Below the pieces are notes generated by a model, which was not told the DNA's origin, searched no databases, and worked only from the letters and a program-made list of their open reading frames with translations. The position numbers and the translations under genes were made by a program. Below are positions 26,553-49,955 of a stretch of 64,000 nt of DNA, one piece after another; the stretch's first letter is position 1, and each line of letters starts with the position of its first letter. The stretch is from Rhizobiaceae bacterium (GTDB lineage: Bacteria > Pseudomonadota > Alphaproteobacteria > Rhizobiales > Rhizobiaceae), in NCBI GenBank assembly GCA_041397625.1, contig JAWKWH010000005.1, positions 86,271 through 150,270 on the forward strand. Reading direction: 5' to 3'.

Positions 26553-26564
26553 ATTGTTGACAAT
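26553..26564 (+). promoter_or_regulatory. Operator O1 ATTGTTGACAAT (candidate site of the GntR/FCD regulator at 38767-39558)
   Basis: Perfect copy of a 12-bp palindrome also found at 33900, 39570 and 39606. Intergenic, 233 nt upstream of the ABC substrate-binding-protein gene. Confidence 0.7.
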
Positions 26565-26602
26565 CCGCTTGCCATTTGGGGCGGATTGGTGTAGGTTCCA
26601 AA

Positions 26603-26615
26603 TTGAGTAGAAGCG
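26603..26615 (+). promoter_or_regulatory. Conserved leader block TTGAGTAGAAGCG
   Basis: Identical 13-mer occurs on the minus strand at 33862-33874, in both cases downstream of the operator. Function unknown (promoter element or leader RNA). Confidence 0.35.
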
Positions 26616-26797
26616 AACTTAGCGCTGACGGCGCTCTGGTAATTGCTCTCCGTTGTCCTGAGAACCGGGAGAGAGGGGACAATGCTTCGCTCACCAAACC
26701 CAAAACATATGTCATTCGTCGGCATGGGCTCGATCGCGAGCAGGTATGTGCGCCGCACTTATCCTGCGCTTTCGGCTGTGCCGGGAAATGGAGGAGA

Positions 26798-27784
26798 ATG
26801 ATGAAACGCTTGCTGACCGCGGCCGTCGCCGCGTTGACGATCACCGCGCCGGCTGCCGCTGCCGACCAGGTGAAATTCCAGCTCGACTGGCTGCCGGGTG
26901 GCGAGAAGGCGCCCATCTTCGTTTGCATGGAACGCGGTTTCTGCGCCGACGCCGGCCTTGAAGTGACGATTGAATCGGGCCGTGGTTCATCGGAAGCGCT
27001 GACCAAGCTGGCGACCGGCATTTCCGATATCGGCATTTCGGGCATCGGCGCGCTGATGGCCGCCCGCGCCACCGAAAACATCGCGGTAACCGCTGTGATG
27101 TCCGTCTTCAACAAGGGCCCGCACGCCTTCTTCACCATCGAGGGCAACGGAATTTCCAAGTTCGCGGACGTGGGCGGCCGCAGCATCGCCACTTCGCCGT
27201 TCACCTCGTCCAACATCTACCTGCCGCTGGTGCTGGCCGACAACGGCTTGTCGGAAGACAGCATCAAGGTCACCAAGGCCGATCCCGGCGCTCTCGGGCC
27301 GATGCTGGTAACCGGGCAGGTCGACGCGATCATCGCGTGGGTTACCGACGTGTCGCGCTACACCGGCCAGGCCACCGAGGCCGGCAAGGAACTGATCGTG
27401 CTGCCGTGGTCGGAAGCCGGTCTCGACATGTATTCGACGTCCGTCGTTGCCTCCGACAAGTTCCTGACCGAGCGCCCCGACGTGGCTCGCCGCTTCGTGG
27501 CCGCGTTCATGAAATCGATCGAATACTGCCGCGAGAACCCCGATGACGCCGCTCAGGCGGTGGTCGACGCGGTGCCGGAAATCGACGCCAAGAGTGCGCG
27601 CGGATCGCTTGCCGACGCGTTGGTGTTGATGTTCAACGAAGTGACGGAGCAATATCCGCTAGGTAGCTTCGATCCGGAGCGGCTGGCCGCCACCTGGAAG
27701 CGCGTCGCCGCCGCCCAGGAGCTCGACGAGAGCGCCGTCAACCCGGAAGACGTCGTCGATCGCAGCTTCATGCCGGGATCCTGA
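26798..27784 (+). CDS. ABC transporter substrate-binding protein, NMT1/THI5-like (nitrate/sulfonate/pyrimidine-type fold)
   Basis: ORF 26576..27784 trimmed to ATG 26798 (GGAGGAG upstream). Signal peptide [25 protein letters not shown]1/THI5-like fold ([14 protein letters not shown]). Confidence 0.85.
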
Positions 27785-27786
27785 AC

Positions 27787-28578
27787 ATGACTGCCGCAAC
27801 CCGAAACCAGACCGCGATCAGATTTGCCGGCGCCGGCATCACTTTCGACACGGCGTCCGGTCCCCTGGTTGCGCTGAAGGACGTTGATCTTTCCATCGAC
27901 GATCATGAGTTCGTTGCGATCCTCGGACCATCGGGTTGTGGCAAGTCCACGCTGATGCGGCTCGTCGCCGGGCTCCTGAGACCCACCGAGGGCACCGTGG
28001 AGGTGAACGGCCAGAAAGTCGTCCAGCCGCGCGACAATATCGGCATCGTGTTCCAGAAGCCGACCTTGCTGCCGTGGGCAACGCTGGAAGACAACGTCGT
28101 TTTCCCGATGAAGCACAAATACGGCAAGGTAACCGCCAGGCAGCGCCAGCGCGCCCACGAACTGCTCGACATGGTCGGGCTGGCAAAGCTGGAGAAAAGG
28201 CGCCCCGGCCGTCTTTCAGGGGGCATGCAACAGCGCGTGGGCATTGCGCGCGCGCTGTTGCACGATCCGGACATCCTGCTCATGGACGAACCGTTTTCGG
28301 CGCTGGACGCGCTGACGCGCGAGGAAATGGGTTTCGAACTGCTGAACATATGGCAGGAGACGCGCAAGACCGTGATGTTCATCACCCACTCGATCGCCGA
28401 GGCAGTACTGCTGTCCGACCGGGTGATCGTCATGAGCCGCGGGCCGGGAGCGAAAGTTGCCGAGGATCTCAAGGTGCCGGCCGGTCGGCCGCGACACGGC
28501 GAATCCATGCGCTCTTCCGACATGCAGGACCTTACCGCCCATCTGCGTGACATCCTCATGAAAAAGGAGGCGGCTTGA
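27787..28578 (+). CDS. ABC transporter ATPase (NitT/TauT family)
   Basis: Walker [10 protein letters not shown], signature [14 protein letters not shown], Walker B ILLMDEP. Confidence 0.9.
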
Positions 28579-29363
28579 CCATGGCCAGCGCTATCGATCG
28601 CATGAACCGGATCCCCGGCGGATTGCCGGCACTGACCTTCCTCATCATCCTCGTCATCTGGGAGGTCTCAACCAGGGTCCTCCAGATACCGTCCTTCCTG
28701 CTGCCCGCACCTTCGCGTATCGTCGAGGGTTTCGACGGTATAACCGTGGCGCGCTGGGCCGGCCATGTGTGGTCAACCTTCCGCGTGGCCATGACGGGCT
28801 ATCTGACGGCCATCGCGGTCTCGCTGCCGCTGGCGATCATGCTTACGCGTTACAAGACCGTGTCGAGCAGCATCTATCCGCTGCTGGTCGTCATCCAGTC
28901 GACACCGATCGTCGCGGTGGCGCCGATCATCGTCGTCACGCTCGGTTCGGGTGATCTGTCGCGGGTGCTGATCACCTTCCTGATTTCCTTCTTCCCGCTG
29001 GTCGTGTCGATGACCACCGGCCTGAAGGCAACGCCTGAAGAACTAATCGAGCTGTCGCACAGCCTCAGGGCGCCGCTGATCCGCGAGTTCACGCAGATCC
29101 GCATCCCCTTCGCCATTCCCTACATCTTCTCGGGCCTGAAAATCTCGGTGACGCTGTCGGTGATCGGCGCGGTGGTGGCGGAGTTCGTCGCCGCGGAAAA
29201 AGGCATCGGCTACTTCATCCAGTTCTCGACATCCCTGTTCAAGATCCCGCAGGCATGGGCAGGCCTCGCGATATTGGTGTTGATGTCGCTGACATTGTTC
29301 CAGCTCATTTCCTTCATCCAGCGCCGCTTCTTCCCCTGGTCGTTGCCGCGCGAAACGAAGTGA
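28575..29363 (+). CDS. ABC transporter permease (NitT/TauT family)
   Basis: Overlaps the ATPase stop (TTGA; start is TTG). Six-TM permease of the SsuC/TauC type. Confidence 0.88.
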
Positions 29364-29688: not shown

Positions 29689-30276
29689 CTATTCGCTGCG
29701 CACGCCCTGCCAGCGATGCGCCAGCCCGACATCGAGGTCGAAGAGATCGAGCACGCGGCCGATCGTGTGGTCGACCATGTCGTCGAGGCTTTGCGGTTTT
29801 GCGTAGAAGGCGGGAACCGGCGGGTAGATGATGGCGCCGGCCTCGGTGACGGCGGTCATGTTGCGCAGATGGCCGAGATGTAATGGAGTTTCGCGCAACA
29901 AAAGCACCAGGCGCCGGCGTTCCTTCAGCGTCACATCGGCGGCGCGCGACAACAGGTTCGACGTGGTGCCGGTGGCGATCTCGGCCAGCGATTTGACCGA
30001 ACATGGCGCGACGATCATGCCGAGCGTCTTGTAGCTGCCCGAGGCGCAGGCCGCGCCGATATCCTTGTTGGAGTGGCTGACGGTGGCAAGCGCCTCCAGA
30101 TCCCTCAGCCCGAAATCGGTCTCCGCCGCCATCGTCACCCGTGCCGCATTGGAAACGACCAGATGCGTTTCGACGCCGATCTCGCGCAGCACTTCCAGCG
30201 TCCGCTTGCCATAGACGACACCGGACGCGCCGGAAATACCGACGATGATCCTTGGTTTCGCCTTGCTGTTGCTCAC
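29689..30276 (-). CDS. ubiX: Flavin prenyltransferase UbiX (prFMN synthase)
   Basis: Full-length UbiX/Pad1 family (IIVGISGASG, MIVAPCSVKSLAEIA). Confidence 0.92.
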   Translation of the reverse strand: MSNSKAKPRIIVGISGASGVVYGKRTLEVLREIGVETHLVVSNAARVTMAAETDFGLRDLEALATVSHSNKDIGAACASGSYKTLGMIVAPCSVKSLAEIATGTTSNLLSRAADVTLKERRRLVLLLRETPLHLGHLRNMTAVTEAGAIIYPPVPAFYAKPQSLDDMVDHTIGRVLDLFDLDVGLAHRWQGVRSE

Positions 30277-30282
30277 AATCGT

Positions 30283-31671
30283 CTAGCCTTGGCCTAGGCT
30301 CTTCAAGATCGCGGCCGCGCGTTCGCGGGCCGCGGCGCCGATCTCGGCGCGCACACCATGGAAATTCGGTCCGCGCGTAGCGTCAAGCCCCATGCGCGAG
30401 GTGGTTCCGATACCGCTTGCCGACGGGTCGAGCGCATTGCCGGGCAACCCCTCGATGATCACCACGTCGCGATGCGGCTGGAAGTGGGTGGACAGCGCCC
30501 ACAGCACTTCGGAATCATTGGTGATGTCGACATCCGAGTCGACGACAACCACGTTCTTCAGATATTGGTCCCAGCCGAGCAGGCCGAGCATGACCTGGCG
30601 GCCCTCGCCCTCGCGCGACTGGTCAATGGCGATGTAGGCGTGGAAATGCGTGCCCGACGATGGGTAGTGTACGGCGGTAACCGACGGAAAACGCGCCTTC
30701 AATTTCTCCACCACCTCGGCCTCGCGCGGAATGCGGCCGAGGTTGAGATGTTCGGCCGAGTTGCCGCCGGCGACGCTGACCAGGATGGCCTTGTCGCGGC
30801 GCATGACCGTCTCGACAGTGAACAGGTTATTGGTCGAACGGTCCGACGAATAGCCGGTGAACTCGCCGAACGGACCTTCTTCGACATGGGCCTCGTGGTC
30901 GATGACGCCTTCGAGCACGATCTCCGCATGGGCAGGGACGCGAATCCCGTATTTGGGCGTGCGCACGACCTCCAGCGCTCCGCCCATCAGCCCGCCGGCG
31001 ACCACGCGTTCGTCCTCGCCGAAGGCGAGCCGGGCCGAGGCGGCAATCATGAATTTCGGATGCCCGCCGATCACCATGGCGACCGGCATCGGTCTGCCCT
31101 TCTCCTTCGACATGTTGAGCAGCCGCCACAGATGGCCGCGCGAATGCAGGGAGGTGGCAAGCGTACTGGGCGAATTGATCATCGCCCGATGGTAGGAAAG
31201 GTTGCCGGCGCCGGTCTCCGGATGTTCGCCGATGATGATGCCGCTGGTGATGTATTTGGCGCGGTCGGTCTCGAAATGTTTGACCATCGGCAGGCGCGCC
31301 AGATCGATATCGGAGCCGCCCATAACCTGCTCGGTGATGGGTGCGGCGGAGACCTCTTTCGGCTCGACGCCGCGGCGGGCATGCTGCTGATAGGCCTCGT
31401 GCAGACGCGCCTCGTCGACGCCGAACATCGATGCGATGCGACGACGCGAACCGAAGATGTTGCAGATGACTTCCGTGTCCAGGCCGGCGACATTGCGCAG
31501 ATGCAGAATCGGGTGACGGCCCTTGGCGGCCAGGTTCCAGATCAGCGCGGTGGCATCCTGGTCGTCGGAGACCTCGGCCTCGATATCGAGGACATCGTCG
31601 GGATTGGCGGCGCGATAGTCGGCAAGAAAGCGCCTCACATCCTGGGTGTGGAACTGCTGGCTGTCCGACAT
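30283..31671 (-). CDS. UbiD-family prFMN-dependent (de)carboxylase, substrate unknown
   Basis: ORF 30283..31776 trimmed to ATG 31671 (GGGAGG 9 nt upstream). UbiD motifs (GNLSYHR, EGPFGEFTGY). Stop is 6 nt before ubiX. Confidence 0.88.
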   Translation of the reverse strand: MSDSQQFHTQDVRRFLADYRAANPDDVLDIEAEVSDDQDATALIWNLAAKGRHPILHLRNVAGLDTEVICNIFGSRRRIASMFGVDEARLHEAYQQHARRGVEPKEVSAAPITEQVMGGSDIDLARLPMVKHFETDRAKYITSGIIIGEHPETGAGNLSYHRAMINSPSTLATSLHSRGHLWRLLNMSKEKGRPMPVAMVIGGHPKFMIAASARLAFGEDERVVAGGLMGGALEVVRTPKYGIRVPAHAEIVLEGVIDHEAHVEEGPFGEFTGYSSDRSTNNLFTVETVMRRDKAILVSVAGGNSAEHLNLGRIPREAEVVEKLKARFPSVTAVHYPSSGTHFHAYIAIDQSREGEGRQVMLGLLGWDQYLKNVVVVDSDVDITNDSEVLWALSTHFQPHRDVVIIEGLPGNALDPSASGIGTTSRMGLDATRGPNFHGVRAEIGAAARERAAAILKSLGQG

Positions 31672-31729: not shown

Positions 31730-32674
31730 TCAGGCGTCCACCTTGTGCTTGCCGGTAGCGCGGTCGACGCCGGCATAGCTGTCCTTCAGGCGCGCTTCGG
31801 CGTCGCGCTTGTCGCGCGGCGGCGGCGTCGGGTCGATGCCGACCAGCCTGGCGATGTTGTTGCCGAGATAGCCTTCCAGATCGTCCTCCGACAGGTTCAT
31901 GCCCTGCGGCGGCTCATGGCAGAGCACCTCCAGTTCGCGCAGCCACATGCCCGGATCGTTCGGCGGGCTGTCGGTGCCGAAGACAATTCTGTCCTTCGGC
32001 AATTGCTGGGCGAACTCGACGATGCGCGACTGGAAGCACCAGCCGCTCTCGCAATAGACATTGGGCGTGTCCATTGCCATCCAGAAGGCCTCGAACGAGT
32101 AATTGCCGCCGGTCTGGATGCCGAAATGGCCGATGATGAAGTTGACCATCGGGAACTCGCGGATGATCGGGTAGAACATCGTCGGGATGGTGTAGGGCCC
32201 GTCGCCGGTGTGGATCAGCACCACGACGCCGAGCTCGGCGCATTTCTTCATCGCCGGCCGCAGCCACTCCAGCGCCCGGTCCGGCCGGTAGCCGTGCATG
32301 TTGGCGTGCAGCTTGAGCATCTTGAAGCCATATTCCTTGACGTGGAATTCGAGCTCCGCGGCACCGTTCTCAGGCCCCCAACGCGGATTGTAGTTGAAGT
32401 TGCCGATGAACCGGTCGGGATATTTCTGGCACAGCTCGGCGCAGTAGGACATGTAGTCGCGGATACCCTCGCGGCCCATGCGGTTGCCGTCGCGATAGCC
32501 GGTATTGCCGGGCGGCGGCTGGATGAAGCCCATGTCGATGCGGCGCGGCTTGCCGTTGATCATGTAAGGGCCGTCCATCAGTTTCAGCATGCGCTCGCCG
32601 GTGAACGGCTCGCCGGTATGGCGCCACGCCTCGTCGACCAGGTTGGTCGGATGCAGGTGGGTATCGATGATCAT
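31730..32674 (-). CDS. Amidohydrolase_2 (ACMSD/LigW/IDCase-type) metal-dependent enzyme, paralog A
   Basis: N-terminal DTHLH (HxH), HTGDGP, GHFG and FGTDSPP motifs consistent with a metal-binding TIM-barrel hydrolase/decarboxylase. Confidence 0.8.
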   Translation of the reverse strand: MIIDTHLHPTNLVDEAWRHTGEPFTGERMLKLMDGPYMINGKPRRIDMGFIQPPPGNTGYRDGNRMGREGIRDYMSYCAELCQKYPDRFIGNFNYNPRWGPENGAAELEFHVKEYGFKMLKLHANMHGYRPDRALEWLRPAMKKCAELGVVVLIHTGDGPYTIPTMFYPIIREFPMVNFIIGHFGIQTGGNYSFEAFWMAMDTPNVYCESGWCFQSRIVEFAQQLPKDRIVFGTDSPPNDPGMWLRELEVLCHEPPQGMNLSEDDLEGYLGNNIARLVGIDPTPPPRDKRDAEARLKDSYAGVDRATGKHKVDA

Positions 32675-32714: not shown

Positions 32715-33641
32715 TCAAGCGGTTTCCAGCTCGATACCGTGCTGGCGCAGGCGGTCTTCGGCTTCCTTGACGGTGGCGGGCGGAGGGGTCGTGTCCAAGC
32801 CGATCATGCGGGCAACATTGTTGCCGAGGTAATCCTCGAGCGTATCCTCGTCGAGGTTCAGACCCTGCGGCGGCTCGTGGCAGAGCACCTCCAGCAAGTT
32901 GATCCACATACCCGGCTCGTTGGGTGGTGTGTCGGTACCGAACAGGATCTTGTGCGGCGGCAGTTCCTTGGCGAACTCGACGATGCGCGACTGCAGGCAC
33001 CAACCGCTCTCGGCGTAGACATTCGGCTCGTCCATCGCCATCTGGAACGGCTCGAACGTGTAGACGCCGCCGGTCTGGACGCCAAAATGCGCGAGGATGA
33101 AATTGACCTCCGGGAATTCGCGGATGATCGGCACGAATTCGGTGGGGATCGAATAGGGACCGTCGCCCGTATGAACCTTCACCATCACGCCGAGATCGGC
33201 GCATACGCGCATGGCCGGGCGCAGCCAGTCGAGCGCGCGGTCGGGACGGTAGGCATGCATGTTGGCCTGCAACTGCACCATCTTGAAATCGAACTCCTTG
33301 ACATAGCGTTCGATTTCCTCGGCTCCGTTCCCGGTGCCGTAACGCGGGTTGTAGACGAAGCAGCCGATGAAGCGGTCCGGATGCTCGGTGACCATCTTCT
33401 CGGTATAGGCCATGTATTCGCGGATGGCCGCCTTGCCTTCCTTCTCGTGGATGCCGTCGGTGTAGATGGTGTTGCCCTGCGGCGGCTGGATGAAAGCCAT
33501 GTCCACGCGGCGCGGCTTGCCGTTCACGTAGAAGGGGCCGTCCATCATCTTCAGCAGGCGCTCGCCGGTGAACGGCTCGCCATCATGGCGCCAGGCGAGG
33601 TCGACCAGATCGGTCGGATAGCAGCTAATATCAATGATCAT
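32715..33641 (-). CDS. Amidohydrolase_2 paralog B lacking the HxH metal motif
   Basis: ORF 32715..33797 trimmed to ATG 33641 (GGAGAA upstream). Roughly two-thirds identical to paralog A by eye, but the N-terminus is DISCY instead of DTHLH. HTGDGP, AHFG and FGTDTPP are retained. Confidence 0.78.
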   Translation of the reverse strand: MIIDISCYPTDLVDLAWRHDGEPFTGERLLKMMDGPFYVNGKPRRVDMAFIQPPQGNTIYTDGIHEKEGKAAIREYMAYTEKMVTEHPDRFIGCFVYNPRYGTGNGAEEIERYVKEFDFKMVQLQANMHAYRPDRALDWLRPAMRVCADLGVMVKVHTGDGPYSIPTEFVPIIREFPEVNFILAHFGVQTGGVYTFEPFQMAMDEPNVYAESGWCLQSRIVEFAKELPPHKILFGTDTPPNEPGMWINLLEVLCHEPPQGLNLDEDTLEDYLGNNVARMIGLDTTPPPATVKEAEDRLRQHGIELETA

Positions 33642-34037: not shown

Positions 34038-35084
34038 TTATTGCTCGACAAGGCATTCGCGCAGCCGGGCCTCGATTCCCCTGCGGTCGAGGCGACGGCC
34101 GATGAACACGATCTTCGACCTGCGTTCCTCGTCCTGCCAGGGGTGGTCCGGGCGCAGGTCGACCAGCTTGTGCACGGCCTGCAAAACGTAAAACCGGTCG
34201 TCGCCTGCAACCGACAGGATGCCCTTGGTGCGGAAGATGTCCTCGCCCTTCTCGTCGAGATAGTCGTGCAGGAAAGCCTGCAGCCTGCCGAGATCGAACG
34301 GCGCCTGCATGGTGAAGCTGTGCGAGGTCACCGTCTCGTCGTGCACATGGCCGGCGTGATGCGCGTGGTCGTGATGGTCCTGGCCGTCATCGTCCATGTC
34401 GATCTGCAGGATCTCGGCGCGCTCGCGAACATAGGAGGGCTGGAAACCGTTGACGTTGAGGATGCGGCTAAGATCGACGACACCGTAGCTGGAGCGCATG
34501 ATCTCGGCAGTCTGGTTCAGGCCGCGCAGTTCCTTTTCAAGAACGTCAAGATCGCCCTCGCTGGCAAGATCGACCTTGTTGACGATAATCCGGTCGGCGG
34601 CGACGATCTGGTCCACCGCCTGGTTGTCCTTGCCGTCGAGCACCGGATCGTAGAGGTGCTGGTCGACATGCTTGGCGTCGACCAGGGTAACGATCGCGTC
34701 GAGATTGACCTCGCCTGCCACTTCCTGATCGACGAAGAAGGCGGTCGCCACCGGCGTCGGATCCGCCAGTCCGGAGGTTTCGACAATAATGTGGTCGAAC
34801 TTGTCCTTCTGCGCGATCAGCTTCCTCATCACGTCGATCAGGTCGTTGCGCACGTCGACGAAGCAGCAGATGCAGCCATTCTGCATCTGGAAGATCTCCT
34901 CGTCGGAGGCGAGCACCAGATCGCTGTCGACGTCGATCTCGCCGACCTCGTTCTCGATCACCGCGATGCGGTAACCATGGCGTTCGGTAAGGATGTGGTT
35001 GAGTAGCGTCGTCTTGCCCGAACCGAGGAACCCGGTCAGGATCGTGATCGGAATCTTGCCGTCCTTGATCTCATGTATCTGCAT
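34038..35084 (-). CDS. COG0523 (CobW/ZigA-like) metallochaperone GTPase
   Basis: Walker A GFLGSGKTTLL, CxCC motif GCICCF, His-rich stretch DHHDHAHHAGHVHDE. Start ATG overlaps the stop of the Mo-subunit gene (TGATG). Confidence 0.88.
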   Translation of the reverse strand: MQIHEIKDGKIPITILTGFLGSGKTTLLNHILTERHGYRIAVIENEVGEIDVDSDLVLASDEEIFQMQNGCICCFVDVRNDLIDVMRKLIAQKDKFDHIIVETSGLADPTPVATAFFVDQEVAGEVNLDAIVTLVDAKHVDQHLYDPVLDGKDNQAVDQIVAADRIIVNKVDLASEGDLDVLEKELRGLNQTAEIMRSSYGVVDLSRILNVNGFQPSYVRERAEILQIDMDDDGQDHHDHAHHAGHVHDETVTSHSFTMQAPFDLGRLQAFLHDYLDEKGEDIFRTKGILSVAGDDRFYVLQAVHKLVDLRPDHPWQDEERRSKIVFIGRRLDRRGIEARLRECLVEQ

Positions 35085-40746: not shown

Positions 40747-41082
40747 TCAGTTCGATCCGTCGGTTCTGTGCGTATCCGCCAGCCGGCGCGCAGCCTCGTT
40801 CATGGCGTCCAGCTTCGCCTCCGCCGAGCCGCCGGCAAAGGCATTGCCCAGAAGCGTGACCATGCCGGTTATGTGATTGAACTCTTCGGCCGCTTCCTCG
40901 ACCGTCAGCGGTTGGTCGTCATAGGATTCGACGAAACGCTGGGCCGCATAGGAAATGAGAAGCAGGGCCGCCGAATTGTCGGGTTCCTTGGCAATTCGCG
41001 CACGCGCGGCGCGCGCGCAGGCATCATAGGCGCGGACGCCGCCTCCCGCGTCACTAATGGCCTTTACCAGCGAATCAAACAT
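40747..41082 (-). CDS. Hypothetical acidic helical protein (111 aa) between pyrE and pyrF
   Basis: ORF 40747..41091, ATG at 41082. Gaps of 18-20 nt to both neighbours. No recognisable motif. Confidence 0.55.
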   Translation of the reverse strand: MFDSLVKAISDAGGGVRAYDACARAARARIAKEPDNSAALLLISYAAQRFVESYDDQPLTVEEAAEEFNHITGMVTLLGNAFAGGSAEAKLDAMNEAARRLADTHRTDGSN

Positions 41083-41858: not shown

Positions 41859-42899
41859 CTACTCCCCGATATTCCAGTGGATAGGAAACCCCGGGTCGAA
41901 CACCGTGACCGGCCCCTCCGCCGTCTCGATCTTCTCGGGGAACGAAATCGGCGCATCGAGCCGGGTGAGCGTGACGCGGGCTTCATTCGCCGGCAGGCGG
42001 TAGAAGGCCGGTCCGTTCAGCGAGGCGAAGGCTTCCAGTCGGTCGAGCGCGCCTTCCTCCTCAAAAACGTGGGCCAGCAACGGCATGGTGTTGATCGCCG
42101 TGAAAATGCCCGCACATCCGCAGGCACATTCCTTCAGAGGGTCAAGATGCGGAGCCGAGTCGGTGCCGAGGAAGAAGCGCGTGTCGTCCGAAGTCGCTGC
42201 CTCGCGCAGGGCGAGGCGATGGTGCTCGCGCTTGGCAACCGGCAGGCAGTAATAGTGCGGCCGGATACCGCCGACCAGGATGGCATTGCGGTTGATGATG
42301 AGATGATGCGTGGTGATGGTGGCCGCCTGGTTGTGGTCCAGCGAGCGGACATAATCGACGCCATTCTTCGTGGTCACATGTTCCATGACAACGCGCATTT
42401 CGGGCAGCCGGCGCCGCAGCGGATCGAGTACGCGTTCGATGAACACGGCCTCGCGGTCGAATATGTCGATGTCCGGATCGGTCACTTCGCCGTGCACGCA
42501 GAGCGGCATGCCGATTTCCGCCATCTTCTCCAGCACCGGCATGGCCTTCTCGATGTCGCGCACGCCGCTCTGGGAGTTTGTGGTGGCGCCGGCCGGATAG
42601 TGCTTGACGGCGGTGACCAAACCGTCGCGGAAGCCGGCCTCGACGTCGGCCGGCTCCGTGGCCTCGGTGAGATAGAGGGTCATCAGCGGCGTGAAGTCAT
42701 GGCCTGCCGGCAGCGCCTCGAGGATGCGTTTCCGGTAGGCCGCCGCATCGCTCGTCGTTGCCACAGGCGGCACCAGGTTGGGCATGACGATGGCGCGGGC
42801 GAAATCGGCCGAACTGTATGGCAGCACCGCCTTCAACATCGCTCCGTCGCGCAGATGCAGGTGCCAGTCGTCCGGTCGTCTGATCGTCAGTGTGGTCAT
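41859..42899 (-). CDS. pyrC: Dihydroorotase (E. coli-type class II)
   Basis: Near end-to-end resemblance to E. coli PyrC ([34 protein letters not shown]). Confidence 0.92.
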
Positions 42900-44179
42900 T
42901 ATCCAACCTTCAGGAATTGGTGGACGATATCCGTCGCGGCGATGAAATCGGAAAAGTCCATCGCCTCCAGGGGATTGTGCGAACCGTTCCGGTTGCGCAC
43001 GAACACCATCGCCGAGGGCACGCCCGCGGTAGCGAAGACCGCCGCGTCATGACCGCCGCCGCTGGGCATTACAAACGGTTCCTGCCCGACTTCTTTCATC
43101 GCGACTTCCAGTTGGCGGACCAGTGCGGCATCGCACAGCGCCGGCGCAGTATAGAGTTCTTCGTCAAATTTGAACTCGACCTTCCGGTCCCGCTCCACTT
43201 GCCGCATTTCGGCTTCCAGCAGCGCGCGCATTTCGTCAAGCGTTTCGGCGCTCTGGCTGCGGATATCGAGGCTGAACGAGATCTCGTCTGGAATGCGCGA
43301 CATGGCGTGCTTGTCGGGGTCTGTGCCGACGATGCCGCTGGTCAGGACCAGGTCGTCGCCCTTGTTCAGGATTGTCGACCAGCTCTCGTCCAGCCGCACG
43401 AGCAGATCGGCCATCGCCAGAACCGGGTCGCGCCGGAACGCCCGCGGCACGGCGCCCGAATGCCCTGCCTCGCCGATGCAATGAATGTCGCGATGCCGTA
43501 TGTTGCCGCGAATGCCGGAAACGATGGCCGCCGGAATGTTCTTTCCGATCAGCAGCGGCCCCTGCTCGATATGCAATTCCAGATAGGCCTCGATCTGCCC
43601 GAGGTCGATCAGCGGGCGTCCGTGGCGCACCTCGTCCATCGGGATGCCGACACCGGCCATATGCTCGCCGAGCGTGCGCCCGTCGCCCCTGTGCTTTGCC
43701 GCCAGTTCCTCGGGCGACAGGCTGCCGGTCAGCGCTTTGGAGCCCGTGTAGCAGGGTCCGAACCAGGCGCTCTCCTCGCCGCGCATTGCCAGCACATGGA
43801 AGGGCCGGACGGTCGCCGCGCCGTCTCGTTTGGCCCTGGCCAGGCAGACGAGGCCCGCCACCACACCGGCAAGTCCGTCGAAATTACCCCCGAAGGGAAC
43901 GCTGTCAACATGCGAACCGACGACTGTGAAGGTCTTCGAGTCCCGATGCTCGGGAAGTGAGAAGTTGGCGTTGCAACCGGCATCATGCCAGACATCGATG
44001 CCCTGAGAACGGGCAAATCCCTCGAGCAGCTTCAGCGTCGCCGTCTCGATCTCGGAGAACGCCGGACGACTGACGCCCTCGACATCCGCCGTCTGCGAGC
44101 CGATCCCGTCGAACAACAGCCGCGCGATGCCGAGATCGTCGATGTTGCCGTCGGCAACGATTTGCGTCAGCGCGCTCAC
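42899..44179 (-). CDS. M20-family N-carbamoyl-L-amino-acid amidohydrolase (AmaB/HyuC/AllC family); candidate N-carbamoyl-L-aspartate hydrolase
   Basis: [26 protein letters not shown] and GEAGHSG motifs. GTG start overlaps the pyrD stop (GTGA). Stop overlaps the pyrC start (TAATG). Confidence 0.85.
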
Positions 44180-45120
44180 GGTGCGGCTTCCATGAAAACG
44201 ACGCTCGGCCGCTGCTCACCGTCGACAACGGTCCCGATCAGATCGCGAACCGAGGCGATCCCCTCGCCTTCCAGATGGCGCCGGAGATCGGAGATGATGG
44301 TTACCATGGCTTTCGGGTCGACGAAGGTGGCGGTGCCTACCTGCACGGCCGACGCACCGGCGATGAGGAACTCCAGAACATCGTCGCTGCCGGAGATGCC
44401 GCCGCAGCCGATCACCGGGATGCGCGTTGCCTTCGCGCACTGGTAGGCCATACGAAGCGCTATCGGCTTGAGCGAAGGGCCGGAAAGCCCGCCCATCAGA
44501 TTGCCGAGCTTGGGACGCCTGGTCGTGATGTCGATCGCCATCGCAAGCAGGGTGTTGGCCACGACGAGGGCATCGGCGCCTCCCTCTTCCGCCGCCCTGG
44601 CCACCTCCGGCGTCTCCCCCGTATTGGGCGTAAGCTTCGCCCACAACGGCAGGTGAGTCGCATTCCTGAGCCGGCGCATCACCTCATAGGTCGAGGATGG
44701 CCGGATGGCGAACGCCTTGCCGTCCTCCTCGATGTTGGGGCACGACACATTGACCTCGATGGCCGCAACGCCGTCGACCGTAACCTCGGCGCAAAGCGCC
44801 GCGAACTCGTCGACCGTGTTGCCGGAAATACTGACCACGAGCGGCGTCCGATAGGAACGGTAGAGCGGCACCGTCTTGTCGAGAAAGCTCTTCACGCCCT
44901 TGCTCGGAATACCGATCGAGTTGAGCATGGAGCCGCCGACTTCGCACACGCGGGGCGTCGGATTGCCGCTGCGATAGTCCCGCGTGATCGTCTTGGTCAC
45001 GTGGGCACCCAGGCACTCGATGTCGAACACCTCGGCCAATTCTTCGGAAAACGTGCCGGAGGCCGGCATGATCGGATTCTCAAGGCGCAACCCGGCGATA
45101 TCGACGGACAGGTCTACCAC
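44176..45120 (-). CDS. pyrD: Dihydroorotate dehydrogenase class 1B catalytic subunit
   Basis: ORF 44176..45783 trimmed to GTG 45120 (overlaps the pyrK stop, GTGGTAG). Class-1 catalytic-Cys motif NVSCPN; IPVIGCGGI. Confidence 0.88.
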   Translation of the reverse strand: MVDLSVDIAGLRLENPIMPASGTFSEELAEVFDIECLGAHVTKTITRDYRSGNPTPRVCEVGGSMLNSIGIPSKGVKSFLDKTVPLYRSYRTPLVVSISGNTVDEFAALCAEVTVDGVAAIEVNVSCPNIEEDGKAFAIRPSSTYEVMRRLRNATHLPLWAKLTPNTGETPEVARAAEEGGADALVVANTLLAMAIDITTRRPKLGNLMGGLSGPSLKPIALRMAYQCAKATRIPVIGCGGISGSDDVLEFLIAGASAVQVGTATFVDPKAMVTIISDLRRHLEGEGIASVRDLIGTVVDGEQRPSVVFMEAAP

Positions 45121-45962
45121 GGCATCGCCTCCTGAACATCGAAGACGGGACCTTCGCGGCAGACCCGCAACTGAACGCGCTCGCCCGCCCGCATGAACGG
45201 CCGAACGCAGCAGTGACACATGCCGAGCCCGCATGCCATTTGCTGCTCGAGAGCGATCTGTCCCGGAATTCCGTGGCGCCTGCCGAGCGTCTGGAGCAAG
45301 GTGAGCATGCGGTTCGATCCGCAGGTATAGAAGGCGTCGACGCCCGGCGCGGCAACGAGGCCTTCGATCACCGTTTCCAGGTGCTGCATGCCGGAGGTGC
45401 GCTCCGAATCGGTGACGGTTACGACCTCGGCGCCCATCTCGCGGATATAGTCGATGGACATGAGCAGGTCCGGGGTCCGCGCGCTGCAGATCGCGGTGAG
45501 CCGTTTTCCGCTGTTGCGTGCTTCGAGCGCAAGAGGCGCCAAGGTAGCCAGACCCACGCCGCGCGCGACCAGAATCAGGTGCTGCCAGTCTTCCTCGATC
45601 CGAAACCCGATGCCGAGCGGACCGAGCACATTGAGCCGGTCGCCCGGAGCGAGCTGAAACAGCGCCCGCGTACCGGTCCCGGTCACCTTGTAGAGGAACT
45701 GAAGTTCGCCGCTTTCGGGAAGGAAAGAGTAGATGCTCATCGGCCGTCGCAGATACGGCTTGTCGGCACCATTGGAAGGACACAGCAAGTGGAAGAACTG
45801 CCCCGCGTGGCAGCGATCGAGGAGTTCCGCCGATGCCGCAAGCGTCAGTTGCACGTATTCGCTGTTGACCGGCTTGTTGGACAGGACGGCGAGGTCGCCC
45901 TCAAACACCGTGTGTTCGGATGCGTTCGGGCCGGCAAGCGGTGGGGATGTCATGACGCCCAT
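45114..45962 (-). CDS. pyrK: Dihydroorotate dehydrogenase class 1B electron-transfer subunit (FAD, 2Fe-2S)
   Basis: Ferredoxin-reductase-type fold with C-terminal MACGLGMCHCCV...VCREGPVF cluster motif. ATG 45962 overlaps the dctM stop (TGATG). Confidence 0.88.
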   Translation of the reverse strand: MGVMTSPPLAGPNASEHTVFEGDLAVLSNKPVNSEYVQLTLAASAELLDRCHAGQFFHLLCPSNGADKPYLRRPMSIYSFLPESGELQFLYKVTGTGTRALFQLAPGDRLNVLGPLGIGFRIEEDWQHLILVARGVGLATLAPLALEARNSGKRLTAICSARTPDLLMSIDYIREMGAEVVTVTDSERTSGMQHLETVIEGLVAAPGVDAFYTCGSNRMLTLLQTLGRRHGIPGQIALEQQMACGLGMCHCCVRPFMRAGERVQLRVCREGPVFDVQEAMPW

Positions 45963-47248
45963 CACCCAAACGCCAGGTTGGGAAGGAAGGTGGATATGGG
46001 CGGCACATAGGTAATGATTGCCAGCGCCACGAGGTTGGCCGCAACGAACGGCCAGATGCCCGAGATGATGGTCATGACCGGCTTGCCGAGGGTCGAGGCC
46101 GCCACGAAAAGGTCGAGCCCGAATGGCGGAGTGATCATTCCGACGGAGATATTGAGGGTCACGATCATGCCGAAATGAATGGGATCGATGCCCATTGCCG
46201 TCGCCACCGGATAGAGTGGCGGCACGAGGATGAGCAGGGCCGAATTCGGATCGATGAACATGCCGGCGATCAGGAAGGCGACGTTGACCACCAGCAGGAA
46301 CATCACCGGGCCGGCGTCGGCGGCCGAAAGAAATGCAAGTATGTGGTTGGGCACCTGCGCAAGCGTGATGAAGTAGGACAAGAGACCGCCGAGTGCGAGC
46401 AGCACGAAAATGATGGCCGTCGAGATGGCGGCCCGTTCAGTGATCCCGAACAACCCTCTCAAGGTAAGGGTCCTGAAAACCACGGCCTCGACGAAAATGG
46501 CATAGACCACGCTGGCGGCGGCGGCCTCGGTCGTCGTGAAGAAGCCGCTATAGATGCCCCCAAGGATGATCAGCGGCATACCCAGCGCCCAGGCCGCGTG
46601 GCGGATGGAGGCGAAACGCTCGCGCCAGCTTGTTTTCGCGCCGCCGCTGACGCCGCTGCGCCGCGCCTCCACCGCAACCAGAACGGCAAAGACGACGCCG
46701 AGAACCAGACCCACGGCAATGCCGGCCACGAACAGCCGCGCGACCGACGCGCCGGTCATCCAGCCATAGATGATCAGCGTTATCGACGGCGGAATGAGCA
46801 AAGCCGTCTCGGCGCTTGATGCGACGAGGCCGAGCGAAAACCTGTCGCGAAAGCCGGCCGAGGTCATTTCGGGGTAGACCATGCGGCCCATGGCGGCGAC
46901 GGTGGCCGGCGCCGAGCCCGAAACCGAGCCGAAAGCCATCGAGCCGCCGATGACCGTGTAGCCGATTCCGCCCCTGCGGTGGCCGACAAGGGACTGGACC
47001 AGGTCGGTCAGCCGCCGGGCAATCTGGCCGTCGCCCATCAGCTCCGCCGCAAGGATGAAGAAGGGAATCGCCAGAAGCGTGGAATGATTGATCCCGCCGA
47101 CGACTTTCTGGACGATGACCGGATCGGGCAGTGAACCGTAGAAGAACTGCTTGACCATGATGGCCGGAACGCCGAGCACGAGAAACATCTCGAACCCGCT
47201 GACCAGCAGCACTATGGCGATAGCTATGACAACCGCAAACAGGATCAT
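45962..47248 (-). CDS. dctM: TRAP transporter large permease
   Basis: ORF trimmed to ATG 47248 (ATGA overlap with dctQ). 428-aa DctM-family polytopic membrane protein. Confidence 0.9.
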   Translation of the reverse strand: MILFAVVIAIAIVLLVSGFEMFLVLGVPAIMVKQFFYGSLPDPVIVQKVVGGINHSTLLAIPFFILAAELMGDGQIARRLTDLVQSLVGHRRGGIGYTVIGGSMAFGSVSGSAPATVAAMGRMVYPEMTSAGFRDRFSLGLVASSAETALLIPPSITLIIYGWMTGASVARLFVAGIAVGLVLGVVFAVLVAVEARRSGVSGGAKTSWRERFASIRHAAWALGMPLIILGGIYSGFFTTTEAAAASVVYAIFVEAVVFRTLTLRGLFGITERAAISTAIIFVLLALGGLLSYFITLAQVPNHILAFLSAADAGPVMFLLVVNVAFLIAGMFIDPNSALLILVPPLYPVATAMGIDPIHFGMIVTLNISVGMITPPFGLDLFVAASTLGKPVMTIISGIWPFVAANLVALAIITYVPPISTFLPNLAFG

Positions 47249-47751
47249 GCCCCGCCCTCCCGGTTCTCCGAGAAACGATCGATGACGCCTGCGAAACTGA
47301 GTAGATAGCGCAGCGCAAGCAACGCAAAGCCGATGGTGGGAGCGACATAGATCCAGCCCATCGGAAAGCCGAGGGTCGGGCTGCGCTGGCCGGTGCCGAA
47401 AACGAAGACGGTCATCTCGCAGCCAATCCAAACCAGGTAGAGCGCCAGGACGAAGCCGACCGTGTCGATGATCTTGCGCAGCGGCAACCGCGTGGCCTCG
47501 GCGATGGCGTTGCGCCAGGTATCGACGGCGACATGGCGGCCGCGCTCGAGCGCCAGCCCCAGCGCCAGGAACACCAGATAGACGTTCATCAGGCGTACCG
47601 CTTCCTCGATCCATGCGAGGTCCGAGGCAAGGCTGCTACCGGAAGCGCGCACGACGACATTGATGAAGTACAGGCCGACCATGGTCAGGAAGATGAGAAC
47701 AAGCGAGAGGCGCTCGGCCGTGCGCAGTAATGAAAGCGCCTTCCGCATCAT
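47245..47751 (-). CDS. dctQ: TRAP transporter small permease
   Basis: Four-TM DctQ-family protein. Confidence 0.88.
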   Translation of the reverse strand: MMRKALSLLRTAERLSLVLIFLTMVGLYFINVVVRASGSSLASDLAWIEEAVRLMNVYLVFLALGLALERGRHVAVDTWRNAIAEATRLPLRKIIDTVGFVLALYLVWIGCEMTVFVFGTGQRSPTLGFPMGWIYVAPTIGFALLALRYLLSFAGVIDRFSENREGGA

Positions 47752-47832
47752 CCGCTCCCGTATCGCGTCTCGACAAGATCAGGTTCCCGCGCGGACATCG
47801 GCCCGAAAGCCGCGCCCGCGCGAATGCATCAC

Positions 47833-48843
47833 CTATTCGGTGATCGCTGCGTATTCCTTCTCGTAGAGCTCGATCAACTTCGCACCCTCTTCGCCCGCCC
47901 GGTCGAGATAGGCTTGGCGGGTCGCCGGATACATGGTCTTGCGGAACGCCGCCTTTTCCTCGGCCGACAGTTCACGCACATCCAGGCCCGCCGCCTTTAT
48001 CTCCTCGAGCGAGGAGGCGACGGCGGCGCGCTTGTGAGCGATCAGCTCCGGAATGACCTCGGCAAATGCGTCGGTGATGACCGTCTGGTATTCCGGCGGC
48101 AGACTATCCCAGAATGCGGGATTGAACAGGATCACGTCTTCCATCGCGCCATGGCTGGAGACGACGAGGTATTTCTGAACTTCGTAGAACTTCATCGCCC
48201 TGATGGTGTCGAGCGGGTTCTCCTGGGCATCGACGACGCCGGTCTGCAGGGACGTGTAGAGTTCGCCGAACGGCAGCGCAATGGCCGAGGCGCCGAGCGA
48301 ATTGTACTGCTCGATCAGGATGTTGGAATCCATTACCCGGAACTTCTGGCCGGCAAAGGATTCGATATCGGTAAGTGGCTTGTTGGAAGTGAAACTCTTC
48401 TTTCCGTTCGGCCACAGCATCAGGCATTTCACGCCACGCGTGGCGAAGGAATCGCACAGAGCCTTGCCGAAGGCGCCGGTGCGCAGTTCCTGCGCTTCCG
48501 CGTCGTCGTCGGGAAGCAGGAACGGGATGTCGAGAATGGAGATCGCCGGATTGAAACCGCCCAGGAAGGCTGCGGGAGCCACGGTGGCTTCCAGCGTGCC
48601 GAGCTGAACGCCCTCTGTCATCTCGCGCTGCTGGCCCAACTGGCCCTGCGGGAATATCTGAAATTCGACGGCGCCGTTGGTCCGCTCGGCAACCAGCTTG
48701 GCCACTTTTTCCAGATGCACGTGGCGCGACTGCTGGGTCGATTCGAGATGGCCAATCTTGGCGACGAAATCCGCGGCCAATGCGCCCGATGCGCCGAATG
48801 CGAGAATGGCCGACAGGGTCAGGCTGCGAAGCAATTGTCTCAC
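47833..48843 (-). CDS. dctP: TRAP transporter periplasmic solute receptor (DctP family)
   Basis: ORF to 48852. GTG 48843 preferred because AAGGGAG sits directly on the first GTG. Signal peptide ending ALA-ADF. Carboxylate-binding Arg context GQKFRVMDS. Confidence 0.88.
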   Translation of the reverse strand: MRQLLRSLTLSAILAFGASGALAADFVAKIGHLESTQQSRHVHLEKVAKLVAERTNGAVEFQIFPQGQLGQQREMTEGVQLGTLEATVAPAAFLGGFNPAISILDIPFLLPDDDAEAQELRTGAFGKALCDSFATRGVKCLMLWPNGKKSFTSNKPLTDIESFAGQKFRVMDSNILIEQYNSLGASAIALPFGELYTSLQTGVVDAQENPLDTIRAMKFYEVQKYLVVSSHGAMEDVILFNPAFWDSLPPEYQTVITDAFAEVIPELIAHKRAAVASSLEEIKAAGLDVRELSAEEKAAFRKTMYPATRQAYLDRAGEEGAKLIELYEKEYAAITE

Positions 48844-48905
48844 GGGTTCCACCTCCCTTATGTTTCAGACTGCTGCGAAGCCAAGCCTATGGAACGGCAT
48901 ACCGG

Positions 48906-48917
48906 CTGTCAACAAAT
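48906..48917. promoter_or_regulatory. Degenerate operator-like site CTGTCAACAAAT
   Basis: 9-bp core TGTCAACAA shared with O1-O4. Lies in the dctP/XRE divergent promoter. A TTGACAAT half-site also occurs at 48989-48996. Confidence 0.3.
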
Positions 48918-48919
48918 AT

Positions 48920-48933
48920 TCTCAAAATTGAGA
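48920..48933. promoter_or_regulatory. 6-2-6 inverted repeat TCTCAA-AA-TTGAGA in an AT-rich divergent promoter
   Basis: Perfect arms. Located between dctP and the XRE regulator gene. Candidate operator. Confidence 0.35.
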
Positions 48934-49046
48934 CGTTTATATTTTTCGTCTATTTATTGATCTGTATGTGGATTGGTGATCCGGCCATTTGACAATCGGT
49001 GAAGACGGACCCGATAACATGGCTTCCTGACACCAAGGATAGGTCG

Positions 49047-49955
49047 ATGAGCGTATCGCAGGGGGACTCCATTCGGTTCGGGGATATCGGAGCCCGTTTG
49101 CGGGCCCATCGCCTCGGCAAGGAGTTCACACCCGACGAACTGGCAAGGAAGCTGGGAATTTCCCGCGCCGCGCTCTACAGGGCCGAAAAGGGCGAGATCC
49201 GCAAGATCGAAATGCTCACCAGCATCGCCGACGAGCTCGGGGTATCCCTTGCCAATCTCATGGGCGTCGGGGTCGAGTATGTCAGCACCGCGATCGGCTT
49301 CTTTGAAAGGATGCGGCAGCTCGAGGAGCAATGCCAGCAGATCATCGGCCTGTTCAGCCCGGTATCCTATCTCCTCACATCGGACAGCTACGACGCTGTC
49401 CTAAGGGAGGTGCTGCGCGAGTCGATTCCCGACGGCGTCGAACCGGACGGTACGTCGGTCAAAGCCGTCGACGCGCTGCTGGAGATTCTGCGCGCCCGCA
49501 AGAGAACGTTCGATCTGAAGCGGCCGCTGATCGTCAGCCTTATCGCGTCAGCCGATCTCGAACGGTTCCTGCTGCACGGGCTGATCGGTCGCCACGACCT
49601 GCCCGCCGGGATCATCGACGACCGGCGGATAAAGGCGCGCAGCGAGGCCGAATACATACTCTCCATGCTGCGCAGCCAGCCGATCGGCATCCAGATCGGC
49701 ATCGTTCGCGAACCGGTGCCGGCGACCAGCTTTCAGATCTTTCGGCAGGCGGACCGGTCAGTCCTGGCGATCAGCCCGTTCCGCCTGGGCGAACAGCCCA
49801 ATATCCGGTTGGGCGTGGCGCTGATAACATCGGCGCCAGAAGCGATGGATCTGCACGAGAGCATCGCTGAACGGCTATGGGGCGAGGCGCTGAAAGGCCC
49901 CGAAGCCGCCGCCTATCTGGAGGCCATGATCGACAAATATGCAATCAGCGCCTGA
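49047..49955 (+). CDS. XRE-family HTH regulator with a ~230-aa uncharacterised C-terminal domain
   Basis: ORF 48999..49955, ATG 49047 with AAGGATAGG upstream. HTH_3 motif (FTPDELARKLGISRAALYRAEKGE). Confidence 0.8.
   Translation: MSVSQGDSIRFGDIGARLRAHRLGKEFTPDELARKLGISRAALYRAEKGEIRKIEMLTSIADELGVSLANLMGVGVEYVSTAIGFFERMRQLEEQCQQIIGLFSPVSYLLTSDSYDAVLREVLRESIPDGVEPDGTSVKAVDALLEILRARKRTFDLKRPLIVSLIASADLERFLLHGLIGRHDLPAGIIDDRRIKARSEAEYILSMLRSQPIGIQIGIVREPVPATSFQIFRQADRSVLAISPFRLGEQPNIRLGVALITSAPEAMDLHESIAERLWGEALKGPEAAAYLEAMIDKYAISA

Follow-up and report, generated by a model that had tools for sequence, protein, structure and literature searches.

A predicted lumazine degradation cluster beside a probable orotate utilisation operon in a Rhizobiaceae bacterium

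Introduction

The degradation of lumazine by the gene cluster called cluster I has been demonstrated experimentally in Cupriavidus sp. LA-1 (Doi, Maeda & Takaya, Commun Biol 2025, PMC12391406). The first enzyme, lumazine dehydrogenase (LuDH; LA1_0145-0147), is a three-subunit, NAD-dependent molybdenum (Mo) dehydrogenase which takes lumazine to 7-hydroxylumazine and on to 6,7-dihydroxylumazine, and which accepts several lumazines and pterins (PMC12391406). The second, 6,7-dihydroxylumazine isomerase (DHLI; LA1_0151/0152), is a heterotetramer of two Amidohydro_2 paralogs and forms xanthine-8-carboxylate. Its beta subunit LA1_0151 has His6, His8 and Asp235, while the alpha subunit LA1_0152 is without both histidines yet needed for activity, and the GTP-binding protein LA1_0143, which always co-occurs with the beta subunit, raises the solubility and activity of the enzyme (PMC12391406). 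Finally, the UbiD enzyme xanthine-8-carboxylate decarboxylase (XCDC; LA1_0150), with the UbiX protein LA1_0144, converts xanthine-8-carboxylate to xanthine and is inactive on furoate and 2,5-furandicarboxylate (FDCA). The cluster is carried by Rhizobiales and Rhodobacterales, and in Alphaproteobacteria a CDA-like protein takes the place of the pterin deaminase (PDA) (PMC12391406). Here we analyse a 64-kb stretch of DNA from a Rhizobiaceae bacterium (contig JAWKWH010000005.1; the whole stretch is called the window below), in which a relative of this cluster directly adjoins a group of pyr genes that most likely serves the use of orotate.

For orotate, a reductive route is known from Clostridium oroticum, in which orotate is converted to dihydroorotate, N-carbamoyl-aspartate and finally aspartate, CO2 and NH3. 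This fermentation pathway is said to go back to the work of Lieberman and Kornberg in the 1950s.

A preliminary description of the window, made from the letters alone, had joined the two groups of genes into one coupled pathway of a kind not described before. In our analysis the mixture of Mo hydroxylase, prenylated flavin mononucleotide (prFMN)-dependent decarboxylase, amidohydrolases and pyr genes does not amount to a new composite pathway, which removes a false lead; the block probably holds two independent catabolic modules placed side by side, one leading from lumazine to xanthine and the other serving orotate utilisation. The claim of novelty does not hold for the upper half, which was published in 2025. 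The chemistry of the lower half has long been known, although, as far as the literature was searched, the operon, the assignment of its M20 amidase and its small partner protein have not been described before, and no paper on the operon was found.

Results and Discussion

The upper module and the lumazine degradation cluster

The raw list of open reading frames (ORFs) was noisy at the high GC content of this DNA, and frames were picked by third-position GC and then scanned with Pfam and NCBIfam. All five parts that had been listed for positions 26553-49955 were found in the block (26.5-50.0 kb). On the plus strand the block starts with an NMT1/THI5-type binding protein, followed by the ATPase and permease of an ATP-binding cassette (ABC) transporter. 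The minus strand then carries UbiX, UbiD, two Amidohydro_2 proteins (AH2_a and AH2_b), a CobW/COG0523 GTPase, the Mo large, 2Fe-2S and flavin adenine dinucleotide (FAD) subunits of a hydroxylase and a GntR/FCD regulator, which together with the transporter make up the upper module. The lower module follows on the same strand with PyrF, a 111-residue orf, PyrE, PyrC, an M20 amidase, PyrD, PyrK, DctM, DctQ and DctP, and with an XRE regulator divergent on the plus strand. Longest-ORF starts lay too far 5' for several genes, and improved starts were chosen for the binding protein (26798), UbiD (31671, a length backed by homologues of about 460 residues), AH2_b (33641), the Mo large subunit (37387), the 2Fe-2S subunit (37866) and GntR (39558); the PyrD span was revised to 44176-45120. 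The features of the upper module are as follows.

26798..27784, plus strand: NMT1/THI5-type periplasmic binding protein (PF09084; signal-peptide-like start at 26798)
27787..29363, plus strand: ABC ATPase (27787-28578) and permease (28575-29363) (PF00005, PF00528)
29689..30276, minus strand: UbiX flavin prenyltransferase, predicted supplier of prFMN to the decarboxylase (PF02441; kept in 20+ loci)
30283..31671, minus strand: UbiD-family protein, predicted XCDC (UbiD N-terminal, middle and C-terminal domains)
31730..32674, minus strand: AH2_a, predicted DHLI beta, the catalytic Zn subunit of the isomerase (PF04909)
32715..33641, minus strand: AH2_b, predicted DHLI alpha, the non-catalytic paralog (67% identical to AH2_a)
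33970-33997, minus strand: terminator-like hairpin, 11-bp stem and T tail (strong; consensus match only)
34038..35084, minus strand: COG0523/CobW-type GTPase (PF02492, PF07683; ZigA/YjiA-type relatives)
35084..38726, minus strand: predicted LuDH, with Mo large (35084-37387), 2Fe-2S (37384-37866) and FAD (37863-38726) subunits (Pfam domains; 4-bp overlaps)
38767..39558, minus strand: GntR/FCD regulator of the lumazine module (PF00392, PF07729)
39613-39586, minus strand: sigma-70-like promoter 5' of GntR (TTGACA, 16-nt spacer, TACACT; 10/12 match with TG extension; consensus match only)

Cluster I and the upper module have in common a three-subunit dehydrogenase of the xanthine oxidoreductase (XOR) family, a COG0523 GTPase, a UbiD protein with its UbiX, and an alpha/beta pair of Amidohydro_2 proteins with the same distribution of diagnostic residues (PMC12391406). 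AH2_a starts with MIIDTHLH, which places histidines at positions 6 and 8, and Asp235 is also present; AH2_b, read from its corrected start, begins with MIIDISCY, and both histidines are missing. The likeness between alpha and beta is 67% identity in the window versus the 65% similarity given in PMC12391406. Compared with the chromid cluster of Cupriavidus campinensis, which has its genes in the order LA1_0152 to LA1_0143, the window proteins are 84% (beta), 77% (alpha), 67% (Mo large subunit), 65% (UbiD), 60% (UbiX), 57% (GTPase) and 56% (FAD subunit) identical, with the gene order in the window rearranged relative to cluster I. The Mo large subunit falls under every NCBIfam equivalog cut-off, in line with the "novel XOR group" of PMC12391406, while the true XdhB of the window reaches 1355 bits. 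On these scores the enzyme is not a canonical XDH, CODH, PAO or IOR.

On its gene content and diagnostic residues, the upper module (26.8-39.6 kb) belongs to the pterin/lumazine degradation cluster already published, and its predicted product is not orotate or uracil, as the preliminary description had supposed; the match to the lumazine-to-xanthine cluster holds gene for gene. The two Amidohydro_2 paralogs, which had been read as decarboxylases, are accordingly better described as the alpha and beta subunits of one isomerase. Genes which automatic annotation labels "xanthine dehydrogenase family", "amidohydrolase" and "2,5-furandicarboxylate decarboxylase" can now be annotated as a putative pteridine-to-xanthine route. 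In this route LuDH would hydroxylate lumazine-type pteridines, imported by the NMT1-type ABC system, at C7 and then at C6. DHLI, matured by the COG0523 GTPase, would open the amide of the pyrazine ring and reclose it to xanthine-8-carboxylate, from which the prFMN-dependent XCDC, supplied by UbiX, would remove CO2 to give xanthine. The COG0523 GTPase gene adjoins in all full-length related loci, and the protein is probably a Zn-insertion or folding helper for DHLI.

The nearest Protein Data Bank (PDB) relatives of the binding protein are the pyrimidine binders ThiY (3IX1) and THI5. In Rhodobacterales the NMT1-type importer and GntR accompany the core genes and are arranged as they are here: copies of the binding protein with 67-69% identity adjoin the lumazine cluster in five loci, in the same convergent layout, and copies of the ATPase and permease with 76-84% identity lie beside it. 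In Rhodobacterales and Acidiphilium loci, GntR/FCD copies with 45-52% identity take the corresponding place. The ABC system is thus a probable lumazine/pteridine importer, and the window would represent an importer variant of the pteridine-to-xanthine route, with an NMT1-type ABC system and no deaminase.

Three points weigh against a simple transfer of the published function. Orthology to LA1_0143-LA1_0152 of the LA-1 genome (AP031387-AP031390) was judged through the collinear cluster of the congeneric C. campinensis as a proxy, together with the features described in PMC12391406. The window has the NMT1-type importer and GntR, as in the Rhodobacterales versions, instead of the NCS2 permeases of cluster I, which are also used by the Shinella, Sinorhizobium meliloti and Labrys loci. 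Moreover, no pterin deaminase of either the PDA or the CDA-like type was detected in the 64-kb window by tblastn with the cluster amidohydrolase of S. meliloti, a query which matches 17 related loci among those fetched with the Mo probe (see below); the sole Amidohydro_1 gene of the window is nagA. Given its replacement by a CDA-like protein in Alphaproteobacteria (PMC12391406), the deaminase ranks as an accessory, not a core, element of the cluster. With deaminase and NCS2 both missing, the substrate range could differ from that of the published cluster, and lumazines rather than pterins are the expected substrates unless a deaminase is encoded elsewhere.

In the related loci the CDA-like amidohydrolase, a probable pterin deaminase, mostly lies 3-5 kb past the FAD subunit, a side which in the window is filled by the orotate operon; its position is about 3.8-6.8 kb in L003-L028, and 0.1-1.3 kb in L019 (L numbers denote the related loci).

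The possibility that the modules act on other substrates than lumazine and orotate has to be weighed at this point. For the upper module this could be a non-lumazine pteridine or heterocycle; for the lower module dihydroorotate, N-carbamoyl-aspartate, 5-substituted orotates or hydantoin-5-acetate. The different importer type, the missing deaminase and the identity of only 56-67% between the LuDH and XCDC proteins and their Cupriavidus proxies would fit such a deviation. LuDH, however, is known to accept several lumazines and pterins (PMC12391406), so that modest divergence is no sign of a new substrate class, and the DHLI beta subunit shares 84% identity with the proxy, with the diagnostic residues kept. 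Together with the binding protein evidence for the lower module given below, this makes other substrates unlikely.

Two readings of single enzymes were tried and rejected. For the isoorotate decarboxylase/LigW/PicC-type reading of the Amidohydro_2 genes, the best PDB match of AH2_a is LigW, with an E-value of 1.5e-7 over about 110 residues, and AH2_b is without any PDB match; the alpha/beta pair fits the isomerase instead. For the HmfF/FDCA reading of UbiD, the nearest solved structure is indeed HmfF (6H6X), at 208 bits only, and neither FDCA nor furoate is converted by the LA-1 orthologue (PMC12391406). The hydroxymethylfurfural (HMF)/furoate pathway (HmfF as UbiD, HmfG as UbiX and the HmfABC Mo dehydrogenase) shares UbiD/UbiX and a three-subunit Mo hydroxylase with the window, but the block is without furoyl-CoA ligase or hydratase. 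The automatic annotation from the JGI, which names UbiD homologues FDCA decarboxylase, is not supported for this gene.

The DHLI beta subunit is unusually conserved, with 90-95% identity over Rhizobiales, Rhodobacterales and Acidiphilium and 81-84% in Betaproteobacteria, while its operon neighbours are much less so (UbiD 63-81%, Mo subunit 64-82%).

The upper module contains one 396-bp gap, between the COG0523 GTPase and the DHLI genes, and the hairpin at 33970-33997 lies inside it. The totals of the promoter and terminator scan were at chance level, and only this hairpin and the promoter-like site at 39613-39586 stand out, by position and strength. The hairpin between the GTPase and DHLI alpha genes suggests two transcription units in the lumazine module.

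Distribution of the two modules

The adjacency of the upper and lower modules was examined with the Mo large subunit as probe, which gave 27 related loci from species-representative genomes, taken with 10-kb flanks, onto which all window proteins were mapped. In the 34 related loci, 26 had the upper module only, eight had the lower module only and none had both. The eight-gene core (FAD, 2Fe-2S and Mo subunits, GTPase, AH2_b, AH2_a, UbiD and UbiX) is kept as a unit in the 26 loci, which come from Shinella, Rhizobium, Pararhizobium, Mesorhizobium, Labrys, S. meliloti pSymB, Rhodobacterales, Acidiphilium and Burkholderiales including Cupriavidus. No pyr genes were found in any of these 26 loci, and no upper-module genes in any of the eight loci of the lower module. 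The space beyond the FAD subunit or the regulator is occupied in related loci by NCS2, LysR, deaminase or BMP-ABC genes.

The orotate operon, from XRE to PyrF, is fully collinear in two chromosomal settings unrelated to each other, in L038, where phn genes adjoin, and in L040, where sulfate-activation genes adjoin. Accessory plasmids or chromids of Nitratireductor, Pacificitalea, Agrobacterium, Roseomonas, Variovorax and Cupriavidus carry further versions, which have a tripartite ATP-independent periplasmic (TRAP) transporter or, where annotated, a major facilitator superfamily (MFS) transporter. Both modules are present in C. campinensis MJ1 (NZ_CP043441.1; L032, L043), where on a 2.8-Mb replicon the lumazine cluster lies at about 1.54 Mb and an orotate-type operon (XRE/PyrK-PyrD-M20-PyrC) at about 0.08 Mb. 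Here the modules co-occur without being adjacent, at a distance of 1.46 Mb.

These findings bear directly on the coupled pathway, in which the upper enzymes would make orotate or uracil from carboxylated or oxidisable pyrimidine-like compounds and the pyr genes would degrade or salvage the product. In its favour, the modules are contiguous and share a strand, PyrF and GntR being 247 bp apart, and there are precedents on N-heterocyclic acids for the Mo hydroxylase, UbiD and Amidohydro_2 families. Against it stand the experimentally established route of the same eight-gene module, ending in xanthine (PMC12391406), the alpha/beta signature of an isomerase in the Amidohydro_2 pair, the promoter-like site of GntR's own, the quite different genes found beyond the FAD subunit and regulator in related loci, and the separate distribution itself, with none of 26 upper loci carrying pyr genes and none of eight lower loci carrying upper genes. 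The coupling claimed in the preliminary description is thereby contradicted as far as adjacency is concerned, and we regard the coupled pathway as highly improbable. The separate distribution, the promoter-like site and the hairpin point to a block of two modules that happen to abut, and their adjacency looks incidental. It counts on the other side that the link was assessed by adjacency only, which is distinct from genome-wide co-occurrence and co-regulation. Composition gives no support to the label "island" that the block had received, since the GC content is flat, at 0.60-0.64, over the block and its flanks.

A Mo-hydroxylase link at the operon of Variovorax paradoxus VAI-C was considered and rejected, the enzyme being of the dimethyl sulfoxide (DMSO)-reductase family and unrelated to the XOR-family enzyme of the window. 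The operon is flanked in that locus (L002, 5671-9792) by GntR/FCD, the DMSO-reductase-family molybdoenzyme and a 2Fe-2S oxidoreductase.

The lower module as an orotate operon

The lower module (39.8-50.0 kb) most likely serves the import of orotate, its degradation to aspartate and its salvage to uridine monophosphate (UMP). Its genes overlap or are spaced by no more than 81 bp, and are listed here.

39809..40726, minus strand: PyrF, orotidine monophosphate decarboxylase subfamily 2, accessory copy, last gene of the operon (TIGR02127, 207.6 versus cut-off 110.6 bits)
40747..41082, minus strand: 111-residue helical protein (no Pfam or NCBIfam match)
41101..41796, minus strand: PyrE, orotate phosphoribosyltransferase, operon-borne paralog (NF001729, 388.8 versus cut-off 245 bits)
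41859..42899, minus strand: PyrC, dihydroorotase of the dimeric type (TIGR00856, 436 versus cut-off 293 bits)
42899..44179, minus strand: M20 hydantoinase/carbamoylase-family amidase (TIGR01879, 257 versus cut-off 204 bits)
44176..45965, minus strand: class 1B dihydroorotate dehydrogenase, PyrD (44176-45120) and PyrK (45114-45965) (NF005574, 351 versus 269 bits; PF10418 Fe-S domain)
45962..48852, minus strand: TRAP transporter, DctM (45962-47251), DctQ (47245-47751) and DctP (47833-48852) (Pfam)
48999..49955, plus strand: XRE-type helix-turn-helix (HTH) regulator of the orotate operon, divergent (PF13560, PF01381)

The order pyrF, orf, pyrE of the preliminary description is reversed with respect to transcription, which runs PyrE, orf, PyrF at this end of the module. 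Its proposal that the lower module leads from orotate to aspartate and/or UMP, on the other hand, is plausible, given the kinship of DctP and the recurrence of the operon on accessory plasmids. DctP matches PDB entry 4NN3 with 453 bits (E 5e-135); over 322 residues aligned without a gap the two are 64% identical, and the second-best PDB match has 172 bits. The 4NN3 protein is the TRAP binding protein Desal_2161 of Maridesulfovibrio salexigens, crystallised with orotic acid (PMC11668362), and orotic acid is listed in a passage of PMC5812351 among the new TRAP ligands from the screen by the Enzyme Function Initiative (EFI). Desal_2161 comes from another phylum than the host of the window. The match supports orotate uptake and a reductive route to aspartate. 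As regards the other substrates considered above, an identity of 64% is not 100%, and an MFS transporter replaces TRAP in some operon versions; the gapless match to an orotate-bound protein, far above the next one in the PDB, speaks for orotate itself.

In the proposed scheme, the XRE-regulated module would take up orotate by the TRAP system, and PyrDK, read as an NADH-dependent orotate reductase, would form dihydroorotate. PyrC, read as running from dihydroorotate to N-carbamoyl-L-aspartate, would open the ring, and the M20 amidase, probably together with the 111-residue protein, would release aspartate, NH3 and CO2. The direction of both PyrDK and PyrC is taken from context. Part of the orotate would be turned into UMP by the PyrE and PyrF paralogs, a branch which plausibly sustains the pyrimidine supply while biosynthetic intermediates are drained. 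The operon may thus be an example of PyrDK and PyrC recruited to run backwards beside duplicate salvage enzymes.

The window resembles the C. oroticum route in bringing together genes for a class 1B NAD-linked PyrD/PyrK, a dihydroorotase and a putative carbamoyl-amino-acid amidase. Unlike C. oroticum, the hosts are aerobic or microaerobic Proteobacteria, and a TRAP or MFS importer, PyrE/PyrF paralogs and a small helical protein are added. The reductive catabolism of uracil and thymine is also alike, in that the 5,6 double bond is reduced, the ring opened hydrolytically and the product decarbamoylated. The last of these steps is carried out there by beta-ureidopropionase/M20 beta-alanine synthase, and the M20 protein in the window is distantly homologous to the M20 beta-alanine synthases. 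The window differs in having the orotate-specific PyrDK and PyrC, and not the PreTA/dihydropyrimidine dehydrogenase (DPD) and dihydropyrimidinase of that pathway.

The same genes could in principle be anabolic, that is, a quinone-independent pyrimidine biosynthesis for microaerobic life in which orotate uptake is salvage only. PyrD, PyrC, PyrE and PyrF all pass hidden Markov models (HMMs) of biosynthetic equivalogs, the cbb3 oxidase genes fixN/O/P follow directly downstream (50971-54359), and housekeeping pyrC-pyrE pairs share the gene order. Pfam and NCBIfam scans, however, gave no aspartate transcarbamoylase (ATCase) or carbamoyl-phosphate synthetase (CPSase) domains (pyrB, carAB) in the block. 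The M20 carbamoylase is inside the operon in every version and would destroy a pathway intermediate, a dedicated orotate-type binding protein is present, and the operon occurs on accessory and conjugative plasmids. In addition, fixNOP is adjacent in no other locus examined, and the Stappia version is without PyrE and PyrF. The operon-borne PyrE is 85-98% identical to operon-borne PyrE of Rhizobiaceae and Phyllobacteriaceae but 62-63% identical to housekeeping PyrE (S. meliloti, Paracoccus), and on these identities it is a group apart from the housekeeping proteins. The lack of pyrB and carAB, the plasmid location, the operon's own regulator and the distinct PyrE argue against a biosynthetic operon, and an anabolic role appears quite unlikely.

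Single genes of the operon recur in the related loci. PyrF has the same position in L038, and is also present in L040 and on the Agrobacterium plasmid (L035); in-operon PyrC copies are found in L002, L038-L040 and L043. XRE homologues with 46-81% identity lie beside the operon in L001, L002, L034, L035, L039 and L043, and HTH_31/HTH_3 regulators are at the XRE position in L038 and L040.

Several observations must be set against the orotate reading. By HMM, the class 1B PyrD, PyrC, PyrE and PyrF are ordinary biosynthetic enzymes, and the catabolic direction comes from context only. The content of the operon varies, with no PyrC in L001, L034 and L036 and no PyrE/PyrF in L039 (Stappia). The M20 amidase falls below the cut-offs of allantoate amidohydrolase, of ErtE and of all specific NCBIfam equivalogs. 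No literature was found that describes the operon or an experiment on any of its members; one paper mentioning "utilization of orotate" concerns dctA-mediated uptake only.

The M20 amidase and the 111-residue protein

The best PDB match of the M20 protein is the N-carbamoyl-L-amino-acid hydrolase 3N5F, and in related operons its gene always lies between PyrD and PyrC or PyrE. It is a candidate for N-carbamoyl-L-aspartate amidohydrolase (ureidosuccinase, EC 3.5.1.7), the substrate being suggested by the gene context.

The 111-residue protein has 78 homologues, all of them named at most "hypothetical protein", and the six contexts examined all lie in this operon. The Stappia version without PyrE is among them, and a distant homologue lies in the Variovorax operon. 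The alignment-based AlphaFold model is a five-helix bundle with a predicted local distance difference test (pLDDT) score of 89, and a fold search of the PDB with this model gave nothing at E < 1. In an M20 protein of 552 residues on pAtCFBP7129a of Agrobacterium tumefaciens CFBP7129 (L035, 8119-9777, minus strand), residues 444-548 are homologous to the 111-residue family (hhalign probability 98.2%, E 4e-14). From this fusion, joint action of the small protein and the M20 amidase is suggested, and we regard the former as a probable partner of the hydrolase. The operon offers a widely distributed candidate gene for N-carbamoyl-L-aspartate amidohydrolase, plus a conserved partner protein with fusion evidence.

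Compared with the window, L038 (ERZ25084437, a 3.87-Mb contig) has PyrE 98%, DctP 90% and PyrC 87% identical, with the small orf only 72% identical. It seems that the 111-residue protein changes more rapidly than the proteins encoded around it in the operon.

Taken as a whole, the lower module may represent an operon for aerobic orotate catabolism in Alpha- and Betaproteobacteria that has so far gone undescribed, with M20 as the missing ureidosuccinase gene, the 111-residue protein as its partner and PyrE/PyrF upholding UMP synthesis. We offer this full combination as a tentative proposal.

Xanthine utilisation genes and other neighbours

A set of genes for xanthine oxidation lies about 16 kb from the lumazine module, outside the reported block.

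5914..10593, minus strand: xdhC (5914-7059), xdhB (6756-9197) and xdhA (9115-10593) (TIGR02964, TIGR02965, TIGR02963, all above cut-offs; stop-to-stop)
10594-11034, minus strand: 5-hydroxyisourate (HIU) hydrolase, transthyretin family (PF00576; stop-to-stop)

The xdhABC and HIU hydrolase genes could consume xanthine from the lumazine module, their products oxidising it further, and the set resembles the role of "cluster II" in the published Cupriavidus system.

Downstream of the block follow a DUF2189 membrane protein and the fixP/fixO/fixN cbb3 oxidase genes (50006-54359, minus strand; fixN/O/P at 50971-54359) and a hemerythrin-domain protein (55325-55825, plus strand). These neighbours are not conserved beside the orotate operon in other loci. 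On the other side, genes for SelO and a Na+/H+ exchanger lie upstream of the block. Between them and the xdh genes there is an amino-sugar utilisation cluster (12663-21861), made up of a nagA-like deacetylase, a pair of SIS-domain proteins and an ABC transporter of the sugar type.

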